Part shown: positions 28,129 through 60,872 of the stretch, one piece after another | How positions within the stretch are numbered: the stretch's first letter is position 1 | Layout: every line of letters begins with the position of its first letter | NCBI RefSeq assembly: GCF_003334385.1 | Contig: NZ_QOWN01000012.1 | Length of the DNA stretch: 64,000 nt | Direction: 5' to 3' (one strand) | Source of the DNA: Escherichia coli | GTDB lineage: Bacteria; Pseudomonadota; Gammaproteobacteria; Enterobacterales; Enterobacteriaceae | Translations under genes and position numbers: made by a program | The notes under the pieces: generated by a model | What the model saw: only the letters and a program-made list of their open reading frames with translations | Databases searched by the model: none | What the model was told of the DNA's origin: nothing

Positions 28129-29577
28129 TTATTCTCCATGCTCATTTTTCTTCAGCTTGCGCATCAGAAGCCACATACGTACTGTCCTGACTTTTAAATC
28201 TTTATCAGAGACGGATTCCTTCACCAGGTCAGCATGATGCTGATAGCCATTAAAGAAGACGTTCAGCACAACGGCGCTAAGGGTTGCGAGCATAATGCCG
28301 CTATGTAGCAGCGGTTGCAGTACGGCCGGTAACTTAGAAAAGAAATCGTGAGAGAGCGTCGGAGTCATGCCAACGCCGAGACTGATCGCCACAATATAGA
28401 GGTTGTAACGGTTGGTGGTGTAGTTACAGCGCGACAGAATTCGAATCCCTGTCGCCAGTACCATGCCGAACATCACTAGACCAGCGCCGCCCAGCACAAA
28501 TTGCGGAATGGAGGCTACCAGCACCGCCATTTTTGGCACCATGCCAAACAGGATTAATATAATTCCCGAAGAAATACACACCCAGCGGCTATGAACGCGC
28601 GTCACGCTAACCAGGCCAACGTTTTGAGAAAATGACGTGTGGGGGAAGCTGTTAAACGTGCCGCCTATCATTGTCCCTACGCCATCGACACGCAGCCCGC
28701 GAATAATATCGTGCGAAGAGAGTTTACGACCGACTATTTCACCCAGTGCCAGGAACATCCCCATCGACTCGATAAACACGATGATTAACACGGCAGTCAT
28801 GGTCAGAATGGAAACGGGATCGAAAATCGGCATACCAAACGACATCGGCGTAACAATCGCAAACCATGAAGCATCATGTAGCCCGGATAAATTGACTTCA
28901 TTCATCATCCACGAAAGTAAAAAGCCAAATACAATCCCCAGTAATACGGCGACGTTGGACATAAATCCTTTCGCATAGCGAGTAATGAGCAAGATAAAAA
29001 TTAAGACGGCAAAGGAGATACCTAAATAAACGGGATTACCATATTGCGGATTCCCTTTACCTCCGGCGGCCCAGTCAATACCCACCTGAATGATGCTAAG
29101 CCCGATAGAAGTAATAACCACACCGGTAACCAGTGGCGGGAATAAAGGCATCAAGCGACCGATAAGTGGCGCTAATAATGTGGTGATAAAACCCGCGGCG
29201 ATAGTGGCACCAAATATCCCCAGCAGGCCGATATCCGGGTTCATCCCAATGGCTATCATTGGTGTTACAGCAGCAAAGGTCACCGACATAATCACCGGCA
29301 GGCGGATCCCCATAAAGCGGCCGATACCGATACATTGCAATAATGTGACGATCCCGCAGCAAAAGAGATCCGAGCTAATGAGCATCGCAATAGCTTCTTT
29401 TGAGAGGCCCAGTCGGTCACCAATCATAAGAGGAACAGCGACTGCACCTGCGTACATGACAAGGACGTGTTGCAGACCGAGTATGATCAGCTTTCCTGGT
29501 GATAATATGCGGTCAACCTCATCAGTTGGGCGGTCTTGCCCAGAAGATGAGGGAAGTTGGGAATCTATGGCGCTCAT
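28129..29577 (-). CDS. uacT: uric acid:H+ symporter, NCS2/NAT family (482 aa)
   Basis: ORF 28129..29706. The recognised YgfU/UacT starts MSAIDSQLPSSSGQDRPTDEVDRILSPGKL. Confidence 0.93.
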   Translation of the reverse strand: MSAIDSQLPSSSGQDRPTDEVDRILSPGKLIILGLQHVLVMYAGAVAVPLMIGDRLGLSKEAIAMLISSDLFCCGIVTLLQCIGIGRFMGIRLPVIMSVTFAAVTPMIAIGMNPDIGLLGIFGATIAAGFITTLLAPLIGRLMPLFPPLVTGVVITSIGLSIIQVGIDWAAGGKGNPQYGNPVYLGISFAVLIFILLITRYAKGFMSNVAVLLGIVFGFLLSWMMNEVNLSGLHDASWFAIVTPMSFGMPIFDPVSILTMTAVLIIVFIESMGMFLALGEIVGRKLSSHDIIRGLRVDGVGTMIGGTFNSFPHTSFSQNVGLVSVTRVHSRWVCISSGIILILFGMVPKMAVLVASIPQFVLGGAGLVMFGMVLATGIRILSRCNYTTNRYNLYIVAISLGVGMTPTLSHDFFSKLPAVLQPLLHSGIMLATLSAVVLNVFFNGYQHHADLVKESVSDKDLKVRTVRMWLLMRKLKKNEHGE

Positions 29578-29645
29578 CAGTGTTTCTCCTTTCGCCCGCC
29601 AGAGTAAAAAGCAACCGTTTACGTTAATGAAACTGTCTAAACACA

Positions 29646-29661
29646 TGCTCGTGGAGTGCCA
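29646..29661 (-). promoter_or_regulatory. candidate sigma54 (-24/-12) promoter for uacT
   Basis: Minus strand TGGCAC-TCCAC-GAGCA, with GG and GC correctly spaced, about 70 nt upstream of the uacT ATG. Confidence 0.4.
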
Positions 29662-29764
29662 GTTTTTGCGAGGAAGGGGAGTTAGAGACAGGAATTGCGG
29701 AGGCAATCACATAATCGTGGTTAAACCACGAAAATGAGAAGAGAACCTGACAATGGAATTATCT

Positions 29765-29785
29765 GTAATTTTCTCATATTGATAT
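29765..29785 (+). promoter_or_regulatory. shared purine-cluster motif copy 1 (GTAATTTTCTCATATTGATAT)
   Basis: The core CTCATATTGATAT is identical to 54811..54823 and matches 12 of 13 positions at 60627..60639 (minus strand). Confidence 0.45.
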
Positions 29786-30012
29786 TTCATTAATCATTCT
29801 GGCATGTCGCACTCTCGCATTTAATCGTTTTTATCTGGATAGCGCTCTTTTGATCGGCAATGTTGAAATAATGAAAGCGGCATAGATTGAGGGGCAATAA
29901 TTTGAACTCAGTCGCAAAATTATAATTAAAACGGTCATGCTACCTAATATATGCCCGTTTATTGCATCGCGAAATTTGAGAAGACATAACTCATTAAATG
30001 AAAGGGATGCAA

Positions 30013-31932
30013 ATGAATAAGTTTATTGCTGCTGAAGCTGCGGAATGTATAGGCTGTCATGCTTGTGAAATTGCCTGTGCGGTGGCACACAATCAAGAAA
30101 ACTGGCCGCTGAGTCACAGTGACTTTCGACCGCGTATCCACGTTGTAGGGAAAGGCCAGGCTGCGAATCCGGTGGCCTGCCATCACTGCAACAATGCCCC
30201 TTGCGTTACGGCTTGTCCGGTTAATGCTCTGACTTTCCAGTCCGATAGCGTACAACTGGACGAGCAAAAATGTATTGGTTGTAAAAGATGCGCAATCGCT
30301 TGCCCCTTTGGCGTCGTTGAGATGGTCGATACGATTGCGCAGAAATGCGACCTTTGTAACCAGCGCAGTTCCGGCACGCAAGCCTGTATTGAAGTTTGCC
30401 CAACACAGGCGTTACGACTGATGGACGATAAAGGGTTGCAGCAGATAAAGGTGGCCCGCCAGCGCAAAACGGCAGCAGGAAAAGCGTCATCAGACGCTCA
30501 GCCATCTCGCAGTGCAGCGTTGCTCCCCGTTAACTCGCGTAAAGGCGCAGATAAAATTTCAGCGAGTGAACGGAAAACCCACTTTGGCGAAATATATTGC
30601 GGGCTGGATCCACAACAAGCGACTTATGAGAGTGACCGCTGTGTTTATTGTGCCGAAAAAGCTAACTGCAACTGGCATTGCCCGCTGCATAACGCTATTC
30701 CGGATTACATCCGTCTGGTACAGGAAGGAAAGATTATTGAAGCGGCAGAACTTTGCCACCAGACCAGTTCCTTACCAGAAATTTGCGGCAGGGTATGTCC
30801 ACAGGACCGTCTTTGTGAAGGCGCATGTACTTTGAAAGATCACTCGGGCGCAGTCTCTATCGGTAATCTGGAACGCTACATCACCGATACCGCGCTGGCG
30901 ATGGGCTGGCGTCCCGATGTCAGCAAAGTTGTTCCCCGTAGCGAAAAAGTGGCGGTGATTGGCGCTGGGCCTGCAGGGTTAGGGTGTGCTGATATTCTGG
31001 CGCGCGCAGGAGTTCAGGTCGATGTCTTTGATCGCCATCCAGAAATTGGCGGTATGCTGACTTTTGGCATTCCTCCTTTCAAACTCGATAAAACGGTATT
31101 AAGCCAGCGGCGAGAGATATTCACCGCAATGGGAATCGACTTTCATCTTAACTGTGAAATTGGCCGCGATATTACCTTTAGCGATTTAACTTCTGAATAT
31201 GATGCAGTTTTCATCGGCGTGGGGACTTACGGGATGATGCGAGCAGATCTGCCGCATGAAGATGCGCCCGGTGTCATTCAGGCTCTACCGTTCCTGACTG
31301 CCCATACCCGCCAGCTCATGGGATTGCCGGAGTCTGAAGAGTATCCGCTGACGGACGTGGAAGGTAAGCGAGTCGTGGTATTGGGCGGTGGCGATACGAC
31401 AATGGATTGTTTGCGGACTTCCATCCGCCTCAATGCCGCCAGCGTGACCTGCGCGTATCGTCGTGATGAAGTCAGTATGCCGGGCTCGCGCAAAGAGGTG
31501 GTTAATGCGCGCGAGGAAGGTGTCGAGTTTCAGTTCAATGTTCAACCGCAATATATCGCTTGTGACGAAGATGGGCGTTTAACTGCGGTGGGCCTGATTC
31601 GTACCGCCATGGGTGAGCCGGGGCCGGATGGTCGCCGTCGTCCTCGTCCGGTAGCGGGTTCAGAGTTTGAATTGCCCGCCGATGTTCTGATTATGGCCTT
31701 TGGTTTCCAGGCGCATGCCATGCCGTGGTTGCAGGGCAGCGGAATTAAACTCGATAAATGGGGCCTGATTCAAACCGGTGACGTCGGGTATTTACCTACC
31801 CAGACGCATCTGAAAAAAGTCTTTGCTGGTGGTGATGCAGTTCATGGCGCGGATCTGGTTGTCACTGCAATGGCCGCAGGAAGGCAGGCGGCGCGCGATA
31901 TGTTAACTCTGTTTGATACGAAGGCATCGTGA
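30013..31932 (+). CDS. ygfT: Fe-S ferredoxin-fused GltD-like NAD(P)H oxidoreductase YgfT (639 aa)
   Basis: ORF 29998..31932, recognised start [22 protein letters not shown]. Four CxxCxxCxxxC-type motifs are followed by [21 protein letters not shown]. Confidence 0.92.
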
Positions 31933-45886: not shown

Positions 45887-46657
45887 GTGAAAAGTATAGT
45901 TGACCCATCGGCATTAGTCATTGATTTAGGTGCGCAGAAACGTCCCACTGTGATTTCTGTTGTTGGTGCTGGGGGGAAAACCAGCTTGCTTTTTTGGCTG
46001 GCAGAACTGCTCCAGGCTAGCGGCAGGCGTGTGTTAATCACGACGACGACACATATGTTTATGCCAACGTCTCACTGGCCCGTGGTTTTCTGTCGTGATC
46101 CCGCCATGCTTCCTCATGCGTCTCTTACATCCCCCATTTCATTTTGTTTTCACAGTTGGAAAGCGAACCAGGGAAAAGTGCAGGGATTTACGCCAGAAGC
46201 GATTGATGCACTGGTGCAACGACCAGAGTGTGACGTAATTCTCATTGAAGCAGATGGCTCGCGTGGAATGCCGTTAAAAGCGCCTGATGAGCACGAACCT
46301 TGCATACCCAAAAGCAGTTGCTGCGTGATTGCTGTGATGGGAGGACATACTTTGGGCGCGAAAGTGAGCACAGAAAATGTCCATCGCTGGTCGCAGTTTG
46401 CTGATATTACCGGGTTAACACCTGATGCAACCTTGCAACTGAGCGATCTCGTTGCGCTGGTTCGCCACCCTCAGGGGGCGTTTAAAAACGTACCGCAAGG
46501 TTGTCGGCGAGTCTGGTTCATTAACCGTTTTTCTCAATGTGAGAATGCGATTGCACAAAGCGAGCTCCTTCAACCGCTGCAACAACACGACGTAGAGGCA
46601 ATCTGGCTGGGCGATATACAAGAACATCCTGCAATCGCGCGCAGATTTGTGAATTAG
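45887..46657 (+). CDS. yqeC: selenium-dependent Mo-hydroxylase accessory protein YqeC (256 aa)
   Basis: GTG start. P-loop-like VVGAGGKTS. Recognised. Confidence 0.88.
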   Translation: MKSIVDPSALVIDLGAQKRPTVISVVGAGGKTSLLFWLAELLQASGRRVLITTTTHMFMPTSHWPVVFCRDPAMLPHASLTSPISFCFHSWKANQGKVQGFTPEAIDALVQRPECDVILIEADGSRGMPLKAPDEHEPCIPKSSCCVIAVMGGHTLGAKVSTENVHRWSQFADITGLTPDATLQLSDLVALVRHPQGAFKNVPQGCRRVWFINRFSQCENAIAQSELLQPLQQHDVEAIWLGDIQEHPAIARRFVN

Positions 46658-52057: not shown

Positions 52058-53254
52058 TTAAGGTGCTACAGCGTGTTTGCCTTCCCAGACAACTTCGCGG
52101 TAGTGCTTCACGTCGGTGTCGCCTTCAGTGCTGATAACCAGCACCACGGCATCTTTGTTCAGCGCCAGTTTTTCCATCAGGCTTTGACGTTGCGGGTGAT
52201 AATGAACCGCTGCGAGAACGCCCAAACCGACAGCGCCGGATTCACCGGAGATGATGCGCGGGTCGTTGCCGTACGGATTACCCAGCACGCGCATACCTAA
52301 TGCGGCAACGCTGTCCTGGCAGGAGATGAATTGGGTGGCGCAGTTACGTAGGATTTCCCAGCCCAGCGGGTTAGGTTCGCCACAGGCCAGGCCTGCCATG
52401 ATGGTGGCCATATCACCGCCAACGTTGACGATGTCGCCTTTGACGCCGGAGCGATAAATACAGTCAGCTTTGTCAGGTTCAACAATAATGCTGTGCAGAT
52501 TTTGCGGGCTATAGACGTCGACCAGATAACCCAGCACACCACCGGCCATTGCTCCGACACCGGCTTGCAGCAGAACGTGCGTCGGGGTTACGCCCATTTC
52601 ACGCATTTGCTCGACGGCTTCATCTGCCAGGGTTGCGTAGCCTTGCATGATCCAGGTTGGGATTTTGGTGTAACCTTCCCATGCCGTGTCCTGTACCACT
52701 TCCCAGCCGTGCTGCTGCGCGTGTTGCATGGTCAGGCGAACGGTATCGTCATAGTTCATATCCGTGACGATGCACTCGGCACCGAGGTTCAGAATGGCGT
52801 CAACGCGTTCCTGAGCAGAACCTTTCGGCATGTAAATCACCGCATTCTGTCCGAGTTGCTGTGCTGCCCACGCCACACCGCGCCCGTGGTTGCCGTCGGT
52901 GGTGGTCGCGAAAGTCATTTTTTCGCCGATGGCATTTTTCAGGTGCTCAAATGACAGCGTTTCGATATCAAGATGATATTTTTCACACAATAATTGAGCG
53001 ATGGCGTACGCACCGCCAAGCATTTTGAAGGCGTTCAGACCGAATCGTTTTGATTCGTCTTTGACGAGAATTTTCTTCACACCAAAAAGGTTTGCGAGAT
53101 CGTCCAGCGCACAAAGCGGTGTTGGGCGATAACCAGCTATTTTCTGGTGGAACTGGCGCGCCAGTTTGGCCTGGCTTTGCGAAAAGAGCGGTGATGTTTC
53201 GCCGTTGAAAAATTTGTTATCGGCGATATCAATCTTCAATGAGAAAACGGACAT
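52058..53254 (-). CDS. ygeX: 2,3-diaminopropionate ammonia-lyase (PLP) (398 aa)
   Basis: 398-aa ORF MSVFSLKIDIADNKFFNGETSPLF with the PLP-lysine context KDESKRFGLNAFKMLGG. Recognised. Confidence 0.93.
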   Translation of the reverse strand: MSVFSLKIDIADNKFFNGETSPLFSQSQAKLARQFHQKIAGYRPTPLCALDDLANLFGVKKILVKDESKRFGLNAFKMLGGAYAIAQLLCEKYHLDIETLSFEHLKNAIGEKMTFATTTDGNHGRGVAWAAQQLGQNAVIYMPKGSAQERVDAILNLGAECIVTDMNYDDTVRLTMQHAQQHGWEVVQDTAWEGYTKIPTWIMQGYATLADEAVEQMREMGVTPTHVLLQAGVGAMAGGVLGYLVDVYSPQNLHSIIVEPDKADCIYRSGVKGDIVNVGGDMATIMAGLACGEPNPLGWEILRNCATQFISCQDSVAALGMRVLGNPYGNDPRIISGESGAVGLGVLAAVHYHPQRQSLMEKLALNKDAVVLVISTEGDTDVKHYREVVWEGKHAVAP

Positions 53255-54592: not shown

Positions 54593-54608
54593 AACAATAA
54601 GTGTGCCA
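54593..54608 (-). promoter_or_regulatory. weak sigma54-like element upstream of ygeW
   Basis: Minus strand TGGCAC-ACTTA-TTGTT. The -24 element is perfect, but the -12 element reads GT where GC is expected. Confidence 0.25.
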
Positions 54609-54804
54609 GAATTATCCGCGCGGCTGCAAAAGACTAATTTGACGGATAATGTGTGGGGTTGATCACAAATTGATGCCAGCTTCTGGTTGTTTGTAAAATA
54701 CGAAAACGTTTGGCTTTTTTTATCGCGTTATTTATTTGCTGCTAAGTATCAGAAATAAGATAAAGGGGCAGGCTATCTCTCTTCAGTTTGATAAACTCAC
54801 CGCC

Positions 54805-54823
54805 GTAATTCTCATATTGATAT
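54805..54823 (+). promoter_or_regulatory. shared purine-cluster motif copy 2 (GTAATTCTCATATTGATAT)
   Basis: Identical 13-mer core to 29773..29785. A second TGATAT lies 13 nt downstream. Confidence 0.45.
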
Positions 54824-54977
54824 AGAAATGTGATATCTCTTCCATAATTTCATTAGAAAATGATAAAAATCTTATGTTTTTATCAAAGCCAATTTCGCCT
54901 GAGTTAATATCATCATGATCTGTGAACCATCAACGTCTTCAATGATCGACTTTTAAGTAAGTCTGGAAGGTAAAGCT

Positions 54978-60513: not shown

Positions 60514-60529
60514 GGCAAGATTTACGCCA
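60514..60529 (-). promoter_or_regulatory. candidate sigma54 (-24/-12) promoter for xdhABC
   Basis: Minus strand TGGCGT-AAATC-TTGCC, 95 nt upstream of the xdhA ATG. Confidence 0.5.
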
Positions 60530-60619
60530 GAAACGACGATAAGCGTTAGGGGAGGTAGGAAGTGTGATGACGTTAAAAAAACACAGATATGATACGAAAC
60601 AGGACTCTGAATAGGGGCA

Positions 60620-60639
60620 GTGATACGTATCAATATGAG
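60620..60639 (-). promoter_or_regulatory. shared purine-cluster motif copy 3 (CTCATATTGATAC) overlapping an FNR/CRP-family-like palindrome
   Basis: Minus strand reads CTCATATTGATACGTATCAC. TTGAT-ACGT-ATCAC matches 9 of 10 positions of TTGAT-N4-ATCAA. Confidence 0.4.
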
Positions 60640-60872
60640 TGGCGATAAAATCAATGTGATAAATTGGGATTATTACGCATCAGGATGGGAAATAGGGTAA
60701 AAAGTCAGGAAGTTCGATACCTCTACAGCGAATATTTTGCTGATGATACTTCCCTTTGCCAAATGAAATTAACCTCTTTCTCTATTACCACGTTTTTCCA
60801 GAAGCAAGAGATTGGGTATCAAGAGGCTGGCTGCTATGATAAGGCGTCTTGTTTTTTAAGCGAGGAAAGATT

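Follow-up and report, generated by a model that had tools for sequence, protein, structure and literature searches.

A probable YgeV- and sigma-54-dependent promoter for uacT in the divergent uacT-ygfT spacer of the Escherichia coli purine/urate block

What drives transcription of the transporter gene uacT (ygfU) is the question raised by a 435-bp spacer within a stretch of 64,000 nucleotides of Escherichia coli DNA (the whole stretch that was analysed, referred to here as the window). The window contains the purine/urate block of E. coli, in an orientation reversed relative to K-12, with the genes xdhABC, ygeV, ygeWXY, hyuA, yqeA-C, mocA, ygfK, ssnA and ygfM, and further xdhD, xanQ, guaD, ghxQ, ygfS, ygfT and uacT. 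The spacer (29578-30012) separates the divergent genes uacT (minus strand, ATG at 29577) and ygfT (plus strand, ATG at 30013). The block encodes the anaerobic route of purine and urate breakdown in E. coli and other gut bacteria, which is being engineered for urate lowering in gout (bioRxiv 10.1101/2022.07.24.501321; PMC12507026), and both uacT and ygfT are included in the YgeV iModulon, a gene set derived from expression data (PMC10602906, PMC12132413). YgeV, which has PAS, Sigma54_activat and HTH_8 domains, is the sole sigma-54 enhancer-binding protein encoded in the block. No paper that ties uacT/ygfU to rpoN or sigma-54 was found in our literature search. A first-pass annotation of the sequence had proposed a -24/-12 element for uacT and, upstream of it, a motif that recurs in the block and would be an activator site for YgeV. 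The analysis described below indicates that uacT probably does have a YgeV/sigma-54 promoter, lying in a bidirectional, enhancer-dependent spacer that it shares with ygfT. The elements of the spacer are listed here, with positions given relative to predicted transcription starts; a CRP-like site is TGTGA-N6-TCACA with at most two mismatches over the 10 core positions.

29646-29662, minus strand: proposed sigma-54 promoter of uacT, CTGGCACTCCACGAGCA, the start being predicted at 29635, which leaves 58 nt to the ATG
29696-29711: CRP-like site TGCGGAGGCAATCACA (TGTGATTGCCTCCGCA when read towards uacT), with its centre at -68.5 relative to the proposed promoter of uacT
29772-29784: main palindrome TCTCATATTGATA, the proposed YgeV enhancer site, with its centre (29778) at -143 of uacT and -199 of ygfT; 22.3 bits, kept in orthologous spacers
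29792-29804: second, weaker and half-conserved palindrome AATCATTCTGGCA (TCAGAATGATT in orthologues), its centre 20 bp from that of the main one
29901-29916: CRP-like site TTTGAACTCAGTCGCA, with its centre at -68.5 relative to the sigma-54 site of ygfT
29950-29966, plus strand: sigma-54 site of ygfT, TATGCCCGTTTATTGCA, with a good -12 and a degenerate -24, a predicted start at 29977, and identity with the published chromatin immunoprecipitation sequencing (ChIP-seq) site OS32

The -24/-12 element had been read as TGGCAC-TCCAC-GAGCA on the minus strand (29661 to 29646), about 70 nt from the uacT ATG and 112 bp from the recurring motif, and it is present as described. The GG (29660/29659) and the GC (29648/29647) are 10 bp apart in the TGGCAC-N5-TTGCW frame, 69 nt lie between the end of the element and the ATG, and 112 bp separate its start from the 12-mer. 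Despite a low matrix score, the element is conserved. We gathered uacT loci through UacT homologues, with one further locus (L009) from a scan based on YgeW, and obtained seven upstream regions with a promoter of their own, from E. coli, Pseudocitrobacter, Raoultella, Kluyvera, Pluralibacter and two metagenomic contigs. All seven contain CTGGCAY-N5-RAGCA 44-110 nt before the ATG, a pattern with a chance frequency, by our own arithmetic, of ~1.4e-4 per 600-bp region. Positions -27 to -22 and -14 to -10 are invariant (7/7), whereas the five nucleotides between them vary (TCCAC, TGCCT, CACCT, TTTCT, CGGAT) and the flanks are scrambled. In an alignment of the spacers (A1) that was not anchored on this pattern, the longest invariant block was AAAACTGGCAC-N5-RAGCATG. 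Two of the seven loci (L086 and L009) have uacT in a place not adjacent to ygfT, and yet the pattern is kept. The main palindrome is found at -140 to -143 of the uacT start in five of the regions and at -152 and -176, respectively, in the other two; its distance from the element itself is ~119-122 bp in five of the seven species. Morganella uacT has a canonical sigma-54 promoter instead (CTGGTCTGAATTTTGCT, 14 bits), with the palindrome 185 bp upstream.

The operon context of uacT shifts between genera. The gene directly follows ygfK-ssnA, behind the ygfK sigma-54 promoter, in Erwinia-like contigs, and among the loci L084, L087 and L090 it stands either after ygfK-ssnA or after xanQ-guaD-ghxQ, without a -24/-12 element of its own. 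The uacT-like genes of Hafnia and Edwardsiella (L091 and L092, positions 3650-4000; 71-72% identity), which were left out of the conservation count as uncertain orthologues, have a different conserved upstream block, TCGCATGCTCTGTGCAT, and also share a block with a TGATA half-site and a AAATGTGA block. These may represent a more diverged version of the same layout.

The motif upstream of the uacT element had been described as a 12-mer with three copies, all in promoter regions. Searching both strands of the window, we found exact matches to CTCATATTGATA at the same three places, 29773-29784 (plus), 54811-54822 (plus) and 60628-60639 (minus), that is, in the uacT-ygfT spacer, in the ygeV-ygeW spacer and upstream of xdhA, as compared to none in 100 dinucleotide-preserving shuffles. 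With up to two mismatches allowed, 13 matches were present against 3.9 expected. The sequence and its copies had been given correctly; what had been missed is that CTCATATTGATA is part of a dyad-symmetric palindrome, TTATCA-N3-TGATAA, and that there is a fourth copy, the best one, upstream of ygfK. The ATTAAT noticed one helical turn further on lies at 29789-29794 and overlaps the flank of the second palindrome of the spacer, which appears in alignment A1 as the conserved block CAGAATGATT and was scored at -160/-161 in L082, L083 and L086. A palindrome matrix trained on ygeV-ygeW sites from outside Escherichia only (consensus drawn from 43 species) gave six matches in the window that reached 14 bits, where 0.22 would be expected. 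Two of them are intragenic (yqeC and ygeX), and the remaining four lie upstream of sigma-54 sites of the block, at ygfK (45138-45158, 25.5 bits), in the ygeV-ygeW spacer (54806-54826, 23.1 bits), in the uacT-ygfT spacer (29768-29788, 22.3 bits) and at xdhA (60645-60665, 15.9 bits), and the palindrome centres range from -131 to -234 relative to the sigma-54 starts. Paired palindromes are spaced by 20-21 bp in the uacT-ygfT spacer and at xdhA and by 29 bp at ygeW, several of the second sites being weak (3-11 bits), while ygfK has one palindrome only.

The distribution of the palindrome suggests to which protein it may belong. Eighty loci from other species were gathered with YgeW as the query, and TATCA-N3-TGATA was present in all 47 divergent ygeV-ygeW spacers, often with a further copy 27-29 bp away. 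A strong ygeW sigma-54 promoter follows it ~135-215 bp downstream, or 367 bp downstream in a single locus. These spacers span Escherichia, Serratia, Morganella, Vibrio, Photobacterium, Shewanella and Erwiniaceae, with YgeV identity down to 49%; the E. coli form, TATCAATATGAGA, is the reverse complement of the motif in the first-pass annotation. Among the loci that have ygeV, 48/48 showed a palindrome of at least 14 bits in front of ygeW, and 46/48 showed a sigma-54 site scoring 12 bits or more; in the non-gammaproteobacterial loci that lack ygeV, both counts were 0/29. There are three seeming exceptions to this co-occurrence, two Aeromonas loci and one contig that ends early. An outward-facing sigma-54 site lies 40-320 bp away from 73% of 129 palindromes, as compared to 9.6% of random positions. 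Given its co-occurrence with ygeV and its distance of ~100-240 bp from the sigma-54 promoters downstream, the palindrome TTATCA-N3-TGATAA most likely serves as the regulon's enhancer for YgeV, itself the protein most likely to occupy it. The dyad symmetry and the two comparisons above thus support the earlier proposal of an upstream activator site for YgeV.

Sigma-54 occupancy has been determined by ChIP-seq at four sites in the block, xdhA (OS29), ygeW, ygfK (OS31) and ygfT (PMC4591121), which we placed in the window at 60514-60530 (minus), 54593-54609 (minus), 44957-44973 (minus) and 29950-29966 (plus), respectively. The ygfT site, OS32, is weak, with a fold-above-threshold score of 3 (PMC4591121 Table 1). 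It had been overlooked in the earlier reading of the spacer, as had the CRP-like sites. The uacT side of that reading is supported. The features upstream of the three promoters outside the spacer are as follows.

45138-45158: TTATCATTATGATAA, the highest-scoring palindrome in the window, at -202 relative to the sigma-54 promoter of ygfK
ygfK promoter region: CRP-like sites at -67.5 and -97.5, the core of the latter being perfect
54810-54822: second exact copy of the 12-mer (within TCTCATATTGATA), at -234 of the ygeW sigma-54 promoter; a weaker second palindrome site in the same spacer is centred at 54787
54652-54667: CRP-like site of ygeW, at -77.5
60628-60665: third exact 12-mer (60628-60639, minus strand), at -131 relative to the xdhA sigma-54 promoter, with a second palindrome centred at 60655 (-152)
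60563-60578: CRP-like site of xdhA, at -67.5

CRP-like sites occur in the window once per 1,882 bp, and their positions at these promoters are restricted. Such a site is centred at -67.5 in 6/6 uacT orthologues, and 10 of the 11 regions upstream of ygfT have one no more than a base away from -67.5 (-67.5 or -68.5 in nine, -66.5 in L047, none in L085). We surveyed 43 loci from other species, comprising 87 promoters with a palindrome, and the CRP-like centres fell at -67.5/-68.5 (31), -77.5/-78.5 (20) and -97.5/-98.5 (14), the sole exception being one at -56.5. These positions are 10, 20 and 30 bp apart, which is about the helical phase. FNR was considered for this intervening site and rejected, the spacing being N6 with TGTGA/TCACA arms and not TTGAT-N4-ATCAA. 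We then scanned the window for the complete layout. A match required any sigma-54 score of 5 bits or more, a CRP-like site at any of the six offsets and, between -260 and -100, a palindrome scoring 8 bits or more. Exactly five sites were returned, namely the four ChIP-seq sites and the uacT element, and none in 100 shuffled windows. Conservation of this layout extends from Escherichia as far as Vibrio, Photobacterium and Shewanella.

Published work also bears on CRP in this region. The genomic SELEX (systematic evolution of ligands by exponential enrichment) targets of CRP include ygfT-ygfU and ygeV-ygeW, at the resolution of the spacer only (PMC3105977). A preprint on engineering of the urate pathway (bioRxiv 10.1101/2025.05.19.654654; published version PMC12507026) names a 'native Crp-binding site' in the ygeV-ygeW spacer and treats glucose as repressing the pathway. 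An insertion in one strain touches the site on the uacT side: in E. coli strain 200112 (L093, NZ_CM128591.1) an IS1 element lies in the spacer with a 9-bp duplication, TGCGGAGGC, corresponding to window positions 29696-29704. IS1 thus interrupts the CRP-like site nearest to uacT and puts 777 bp between the enhancer and the uacT element.

On the other side of the spacer, the ygfT promoter can also be followed in orthologues. Its -12, TTGCAT, is kept in four enterobacterial orthologues (alignment A1), and the best match near the ygfT ATG in 10/10 orthologous loci is a weak sigma-54-like element with a -12 ending in TGCA. Across 11 species (the window and the orthologues among L042-L048 and L082-L088), TTGCA is found in 10 and CTGCA in L045, and the -24 is degenerate throughout (ATGCCC, GCGCCT, GAGCAC, GTGTAT and others). 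At uacT the -24 is perfect and the -12 weak, and at ygfT the reverse holds.

Several observations weigh against a YgeV/sigma-54 promoter for uacT, and chief among them is the published occupancy. The only ChIP-seq peak for sigma-54 in the spacer, obtained in M9 medium at mid-log phase, faces ygfT (PMC4591121). The uacT element, which we compute to lie at ~3,029,312 in the coordinates of that study, is ~304 bp from the ygfT site, and no entry near this position is present in the text or in the 8 supplementary files searched (PMC4591121). Genomic SELEX with RpoN gave only ygeV/ygeW and xdhB/xdhC in the block. The sequence of the element is also unremarkable on its own. Matches to TGGCAC-N5-TTGCW with up to two mismatches are at chance level in the window (49 against 43 expected), and a sigma-54 matrix built from 46 intergenic ChIP-seq sites (PMC4591121 Table 1; training scores 7.5-20.5 bits) gave the element 5.8 bits, which places it 164th among 127,968 positions and under the weakest training site (7.5). 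The GC is preceded by A; in the 46 intergenic ChIP sites this position is T in 44 and never A. The uacT orthologues are few (seven) and all from Enterobacteriaceae. Our literature search found no published mapping of the uacT transcription start, no experiment connecting YgeV with the palindrome, no ChIP, SELEX or footprint for YgeV, and no description of a YgeV binding motif, TTATCA-N3-TGATAA included. In Aeromonas (L021, positions 9300-10000, and L022) the palindrome TTCTCATAATGATAAT and a strong sigma-54 promoter precede ygeW with no ygeV within 10 kb, and the regulator may be encoded elsewhere in these genomes. Lastly, CRP is described mostly as an inhibitor at other sigma-54 promoters (PMC3900584).

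Of the checks put forward in the first-pass annotation, a matrix scan did not single out the uacT element, and RpoN ChIP data contained no published peak there, the sole peak of the spacer being at ygfT. Consensus and matrix scans were not accepted as deciding the matter in one direction or the other. The accepted ygfT site scores no better (6.1 bits) than the 5.8 bits of the uacT element, and A before the GC is found in one of 135 published sigma-54 sites, the ChIP-verified IS16 (TTGGCATGGAAAAAGCA, with AAGCA as its -12). The region of Cho et al. from chromatin immunoprecipitation with microarray detection (ChIP-chip), 3,028,352-3,029,976, covers both the uacT and the ygfT elements and cannot separate them. 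Its width and midpoint were considered as evidence for two sigma-54 sites and set aside, as the 159-bp offset is within the range for a single site and is compatible with two without arguing for them. A weak closed complex, recruited only with the help of CRP or YgeV, could account for the absence of a ChIP signal at uacT.

The same data may indicate that the enhancer and sigma-54 act on ygfT only, and that uacT is transcribed from a CRP-dependent sigma-70 promoter, CTGGCAC...AGCAT being some other operator or a 5'-leader element. ChIP-seq sigma-54 on the ygfT side alone, with nothing at the uacT element in the supplements searched, the weakness of that element (5.8 bits, with an atypical -12), the CRP-like site upstream of it and the coverage of the spacer by CRP SELEX would all be in keeping with this. 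We nevertheless consider it unlikely. No sigma-70-like hexamer pair was found between 29500 and 30100, where 1.6 were expected, and the invariant positions upstream of uacT are exactly the -24 and -12 boxes, with the 5-nt spacer free to vary. The CRP-like site, at -68.5, shares its offset with those of ygfT, ygfK and xdhA and departs from the -61.5/-71.5 that is typical of class I sigma-70 promoters. Moreover, the ~119-122 bp between palindrome and element in 5/7 species, the persistence of the module with uacT where ygfT is absent (L086, L009) and the canonical sigma-54 promoter at the equivalent place in Morganella all favour sigma-54 at uacT.

A second explanation would assign the palindrome to some other regulator, such as a Fur-like or a purine/urate-responsive protein, with YgeV binding elsewhere. 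The ygfK copy TTATCATAATGATAAG contains ATAATGATAA, which we take to be a 10-nt match to the Fur box consensus; the Aeromonas palindromes have no adjacent ygeV, and two strong copies lie in coding sequence (yqeC and ygeX) with no clear partner promoter. This is improbable, however, given the co-occurrence with ygeV (48/48 versus 0/29), the strong positional coupling to sigma-54 promoters at enhancer distance, and a dyad symmetry that suits a Fis-type helix-turn-helix (HTH) dimer. The other conserved blocks of the spacers are assigned to promoters and CRP-like sites, so that none is left for YgeV, and a sigma-54 promoter requires an enhancer-binding protein, of which YgeV is the only one in the block. 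IHF was also considered for the palindrome and rejected, as only the WATCAA part of its site fits and not TTR, and symmetric TGATA halves contradict an asymmetric IHF site. Finally, chance similarity in AT-rich intergenic DNA, to which the -24/-12 match alone (at chance level) might point, is refuted for practical purposes by three copies of the 12-mer against none in 100 shuffles, by conservation across genera and by five layouts against none.

We therefore return to a YgeV/sigma-54 promoter for uacT, for which the following mechanism can be proposed. Dimers of YgeV would bind the palindrome TCTCATATTGATA (centre 29778) and its weaker neighbour 20 bp away, and would contact RNA polymerase with sigma-54 at two weak, outward-facing -24/-12 promoters. 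CTGGCAC-N5-GAGCA (29662 to 29646) would serve uacT, and ATGCCC-N5-TTGCA (29950-29966) would serve ygfT. The CRP-like site at -68.5, which lies between the enhancer and each promoter, would most likely bend the DNA so that the loop closes and might also aid recruitment of the polymerase; this input would tie expression to cyclic AMP (cAMP). The same three-part layout would drive ygeW, xdhA and ygfK, and because the layout is shared, uacT would belong to one YgeV/sigma-54/CRP regulon for purine/urate breakdown. As CRP inhibits at other sigma-54 promoters, its role at these promoters may also be a negative one.

A bolder version of this model, which is possible but which we hold tentatively, is that the sigma-54 promoters of the YgeV regulon are deliberately sub-consensus, with either a poor -24 or a poor -12, and that cAMP-CRP is an obligatory co-activator or recruiter, its dimer being placed between enhancer and promoter on one helical face, at -67.5, -77.5 or -97.5. 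If true, this would be the opposite of the inhibition seen at glnAp2, dctA and Pu, and would explain both glucose repression of urate breakdown in the gut and the missing sigma-54 ChIP signal of uacT in a non-inducing medium.

A number of further sites in the window and elsewhere deserve mention. The strong palindrome inside ygeX (ATATCAAGATGATAT, 52962-52982, 16.2 bits) has no sigma-54 partner site within 330 bp, and another (46528-46548, 16.6 bits) lies inside yqeC; we looked for partner promoters of these two intragenic palindromes and found none that was convincing on the expected side. The published intragenic sigma-54 site IS34 (TGAGCACGAACCTTGCA, 46288-46304, plus strand) is also inside yqeC and faces yqeB. 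It has a CRP-like site, TGTGACGTAATTCTCA, centred at -78.5, as at other promoters of the block, and the yqeC palindrome is ~220 bp downstream of it, not upstream. IS34 may be a sixth promoter, with a downstream enhancer. A palindrome-like site, ATATCATCATGATCT (54904-54924, 11.7 bits), is found ~60 bp before the ygeV ATG, and its core is present in only three of four E. coli-like loci (L001, E. coli; L003, labelled Citrobacter murliniae; L004, Shigella); it may serve autoregulation of YgeV. In Erwiniaceae (L042-L048, positions ~3250-3600), ygfT is divergent from an xdhD-like gene, and the spacer between them contains the palindrome and a strong sigma-54 promoter (16-17 bits) that faces the xdhD-like gene. 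Outside the purine block, the second best sigma-54-like site of the window (14.6 bits) is CTGTCGCGATTTTTGCA, at 10077-10093.

YgeV has so far been known as a predicted activator with a gene set derived from expression data. A defined palindrome, five promoters of one layout and a probable input from CRP would provide a concrete model that can be tested by mutation, and that covers the joint switching-on of the transporter gene uacT and the enzymes. The model may explain the shut-off of the pathway by glucose, and points to bases that could be changed for constitutive expression. It also suggests that sigma-54 promoters below the thresholds of a matrix or of ChIP can be recognised from a conserved layout. 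The proposed uacT promoter and its enhancer are of a known type, a sigma-54 promoter with an activator enhancer; the phasing of the CRP-like site is possibly new.

Divergent sigma-54 promoters that share one activator region are known in E. coli from hycA-hypA, with FhlA, and from zraP-zraS, with ZraR. The uacT-ygfT spacer is similar to these in its proposed AAA+ activator with a C-terminal Fis-type HTH, in dyad sites ~100-250 bp upstream, in GG/GC promoters that face outward on both sides of the spacer and in having the activator gene in the same block. It differs in that both promoters are sub-consensus (RAGCA as the -12 of uacT, one G at the -24 of ygfT) and in that the intervening architectural site resembles that of CRP and not IHF. 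Both of the known pairs appear as paired sites in the ChIP-seq study (PMC4591121 Table 1).

From a position close upstream of the promoters glnAp2, dctA and Pu, CRP makes contact with the sigma-54 polymerase or poises it, and its geometry relative to the activator-accessible face matters (PMC3900584; PMC1865078). At Pu, a weak closed complex is recruited through IHF as a helper (PMC3900584). The proposed dependence of a weak closed complex on a bending protein between enhancer and promoter is similar to Pu with IHF, and would explain low sigma-54 occupancy when the helper is absent; here, however, the helper resembles CRP and no UP-like elements were identified. The catabolic operon prpBCDE, with its divergent activator gene prpR, is a further parallel, and its sigma-54 promoter reportedly also needs CRP (Lee and colleagues, J Bacteriol, 2005). 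Both are catabolic sigma-54 systems with an activator gene of their own, and the positive dependence on cAMP-CRP is that of prpBCDE; unlike prpBCDE, the CRP-like site here is at a fixed and phased position (-67.5, -77.5 or -97.5) at all five promoters and in many genera. CRP inhibits at glnAp2, dctA and Pu, where specific high-affinity sites are often lacking, whereas here a recognisable site is kept at a fixed, conserved offset, which speaks for a built-in role of CRP in the YgeV regulon, probably a positive or gating one.

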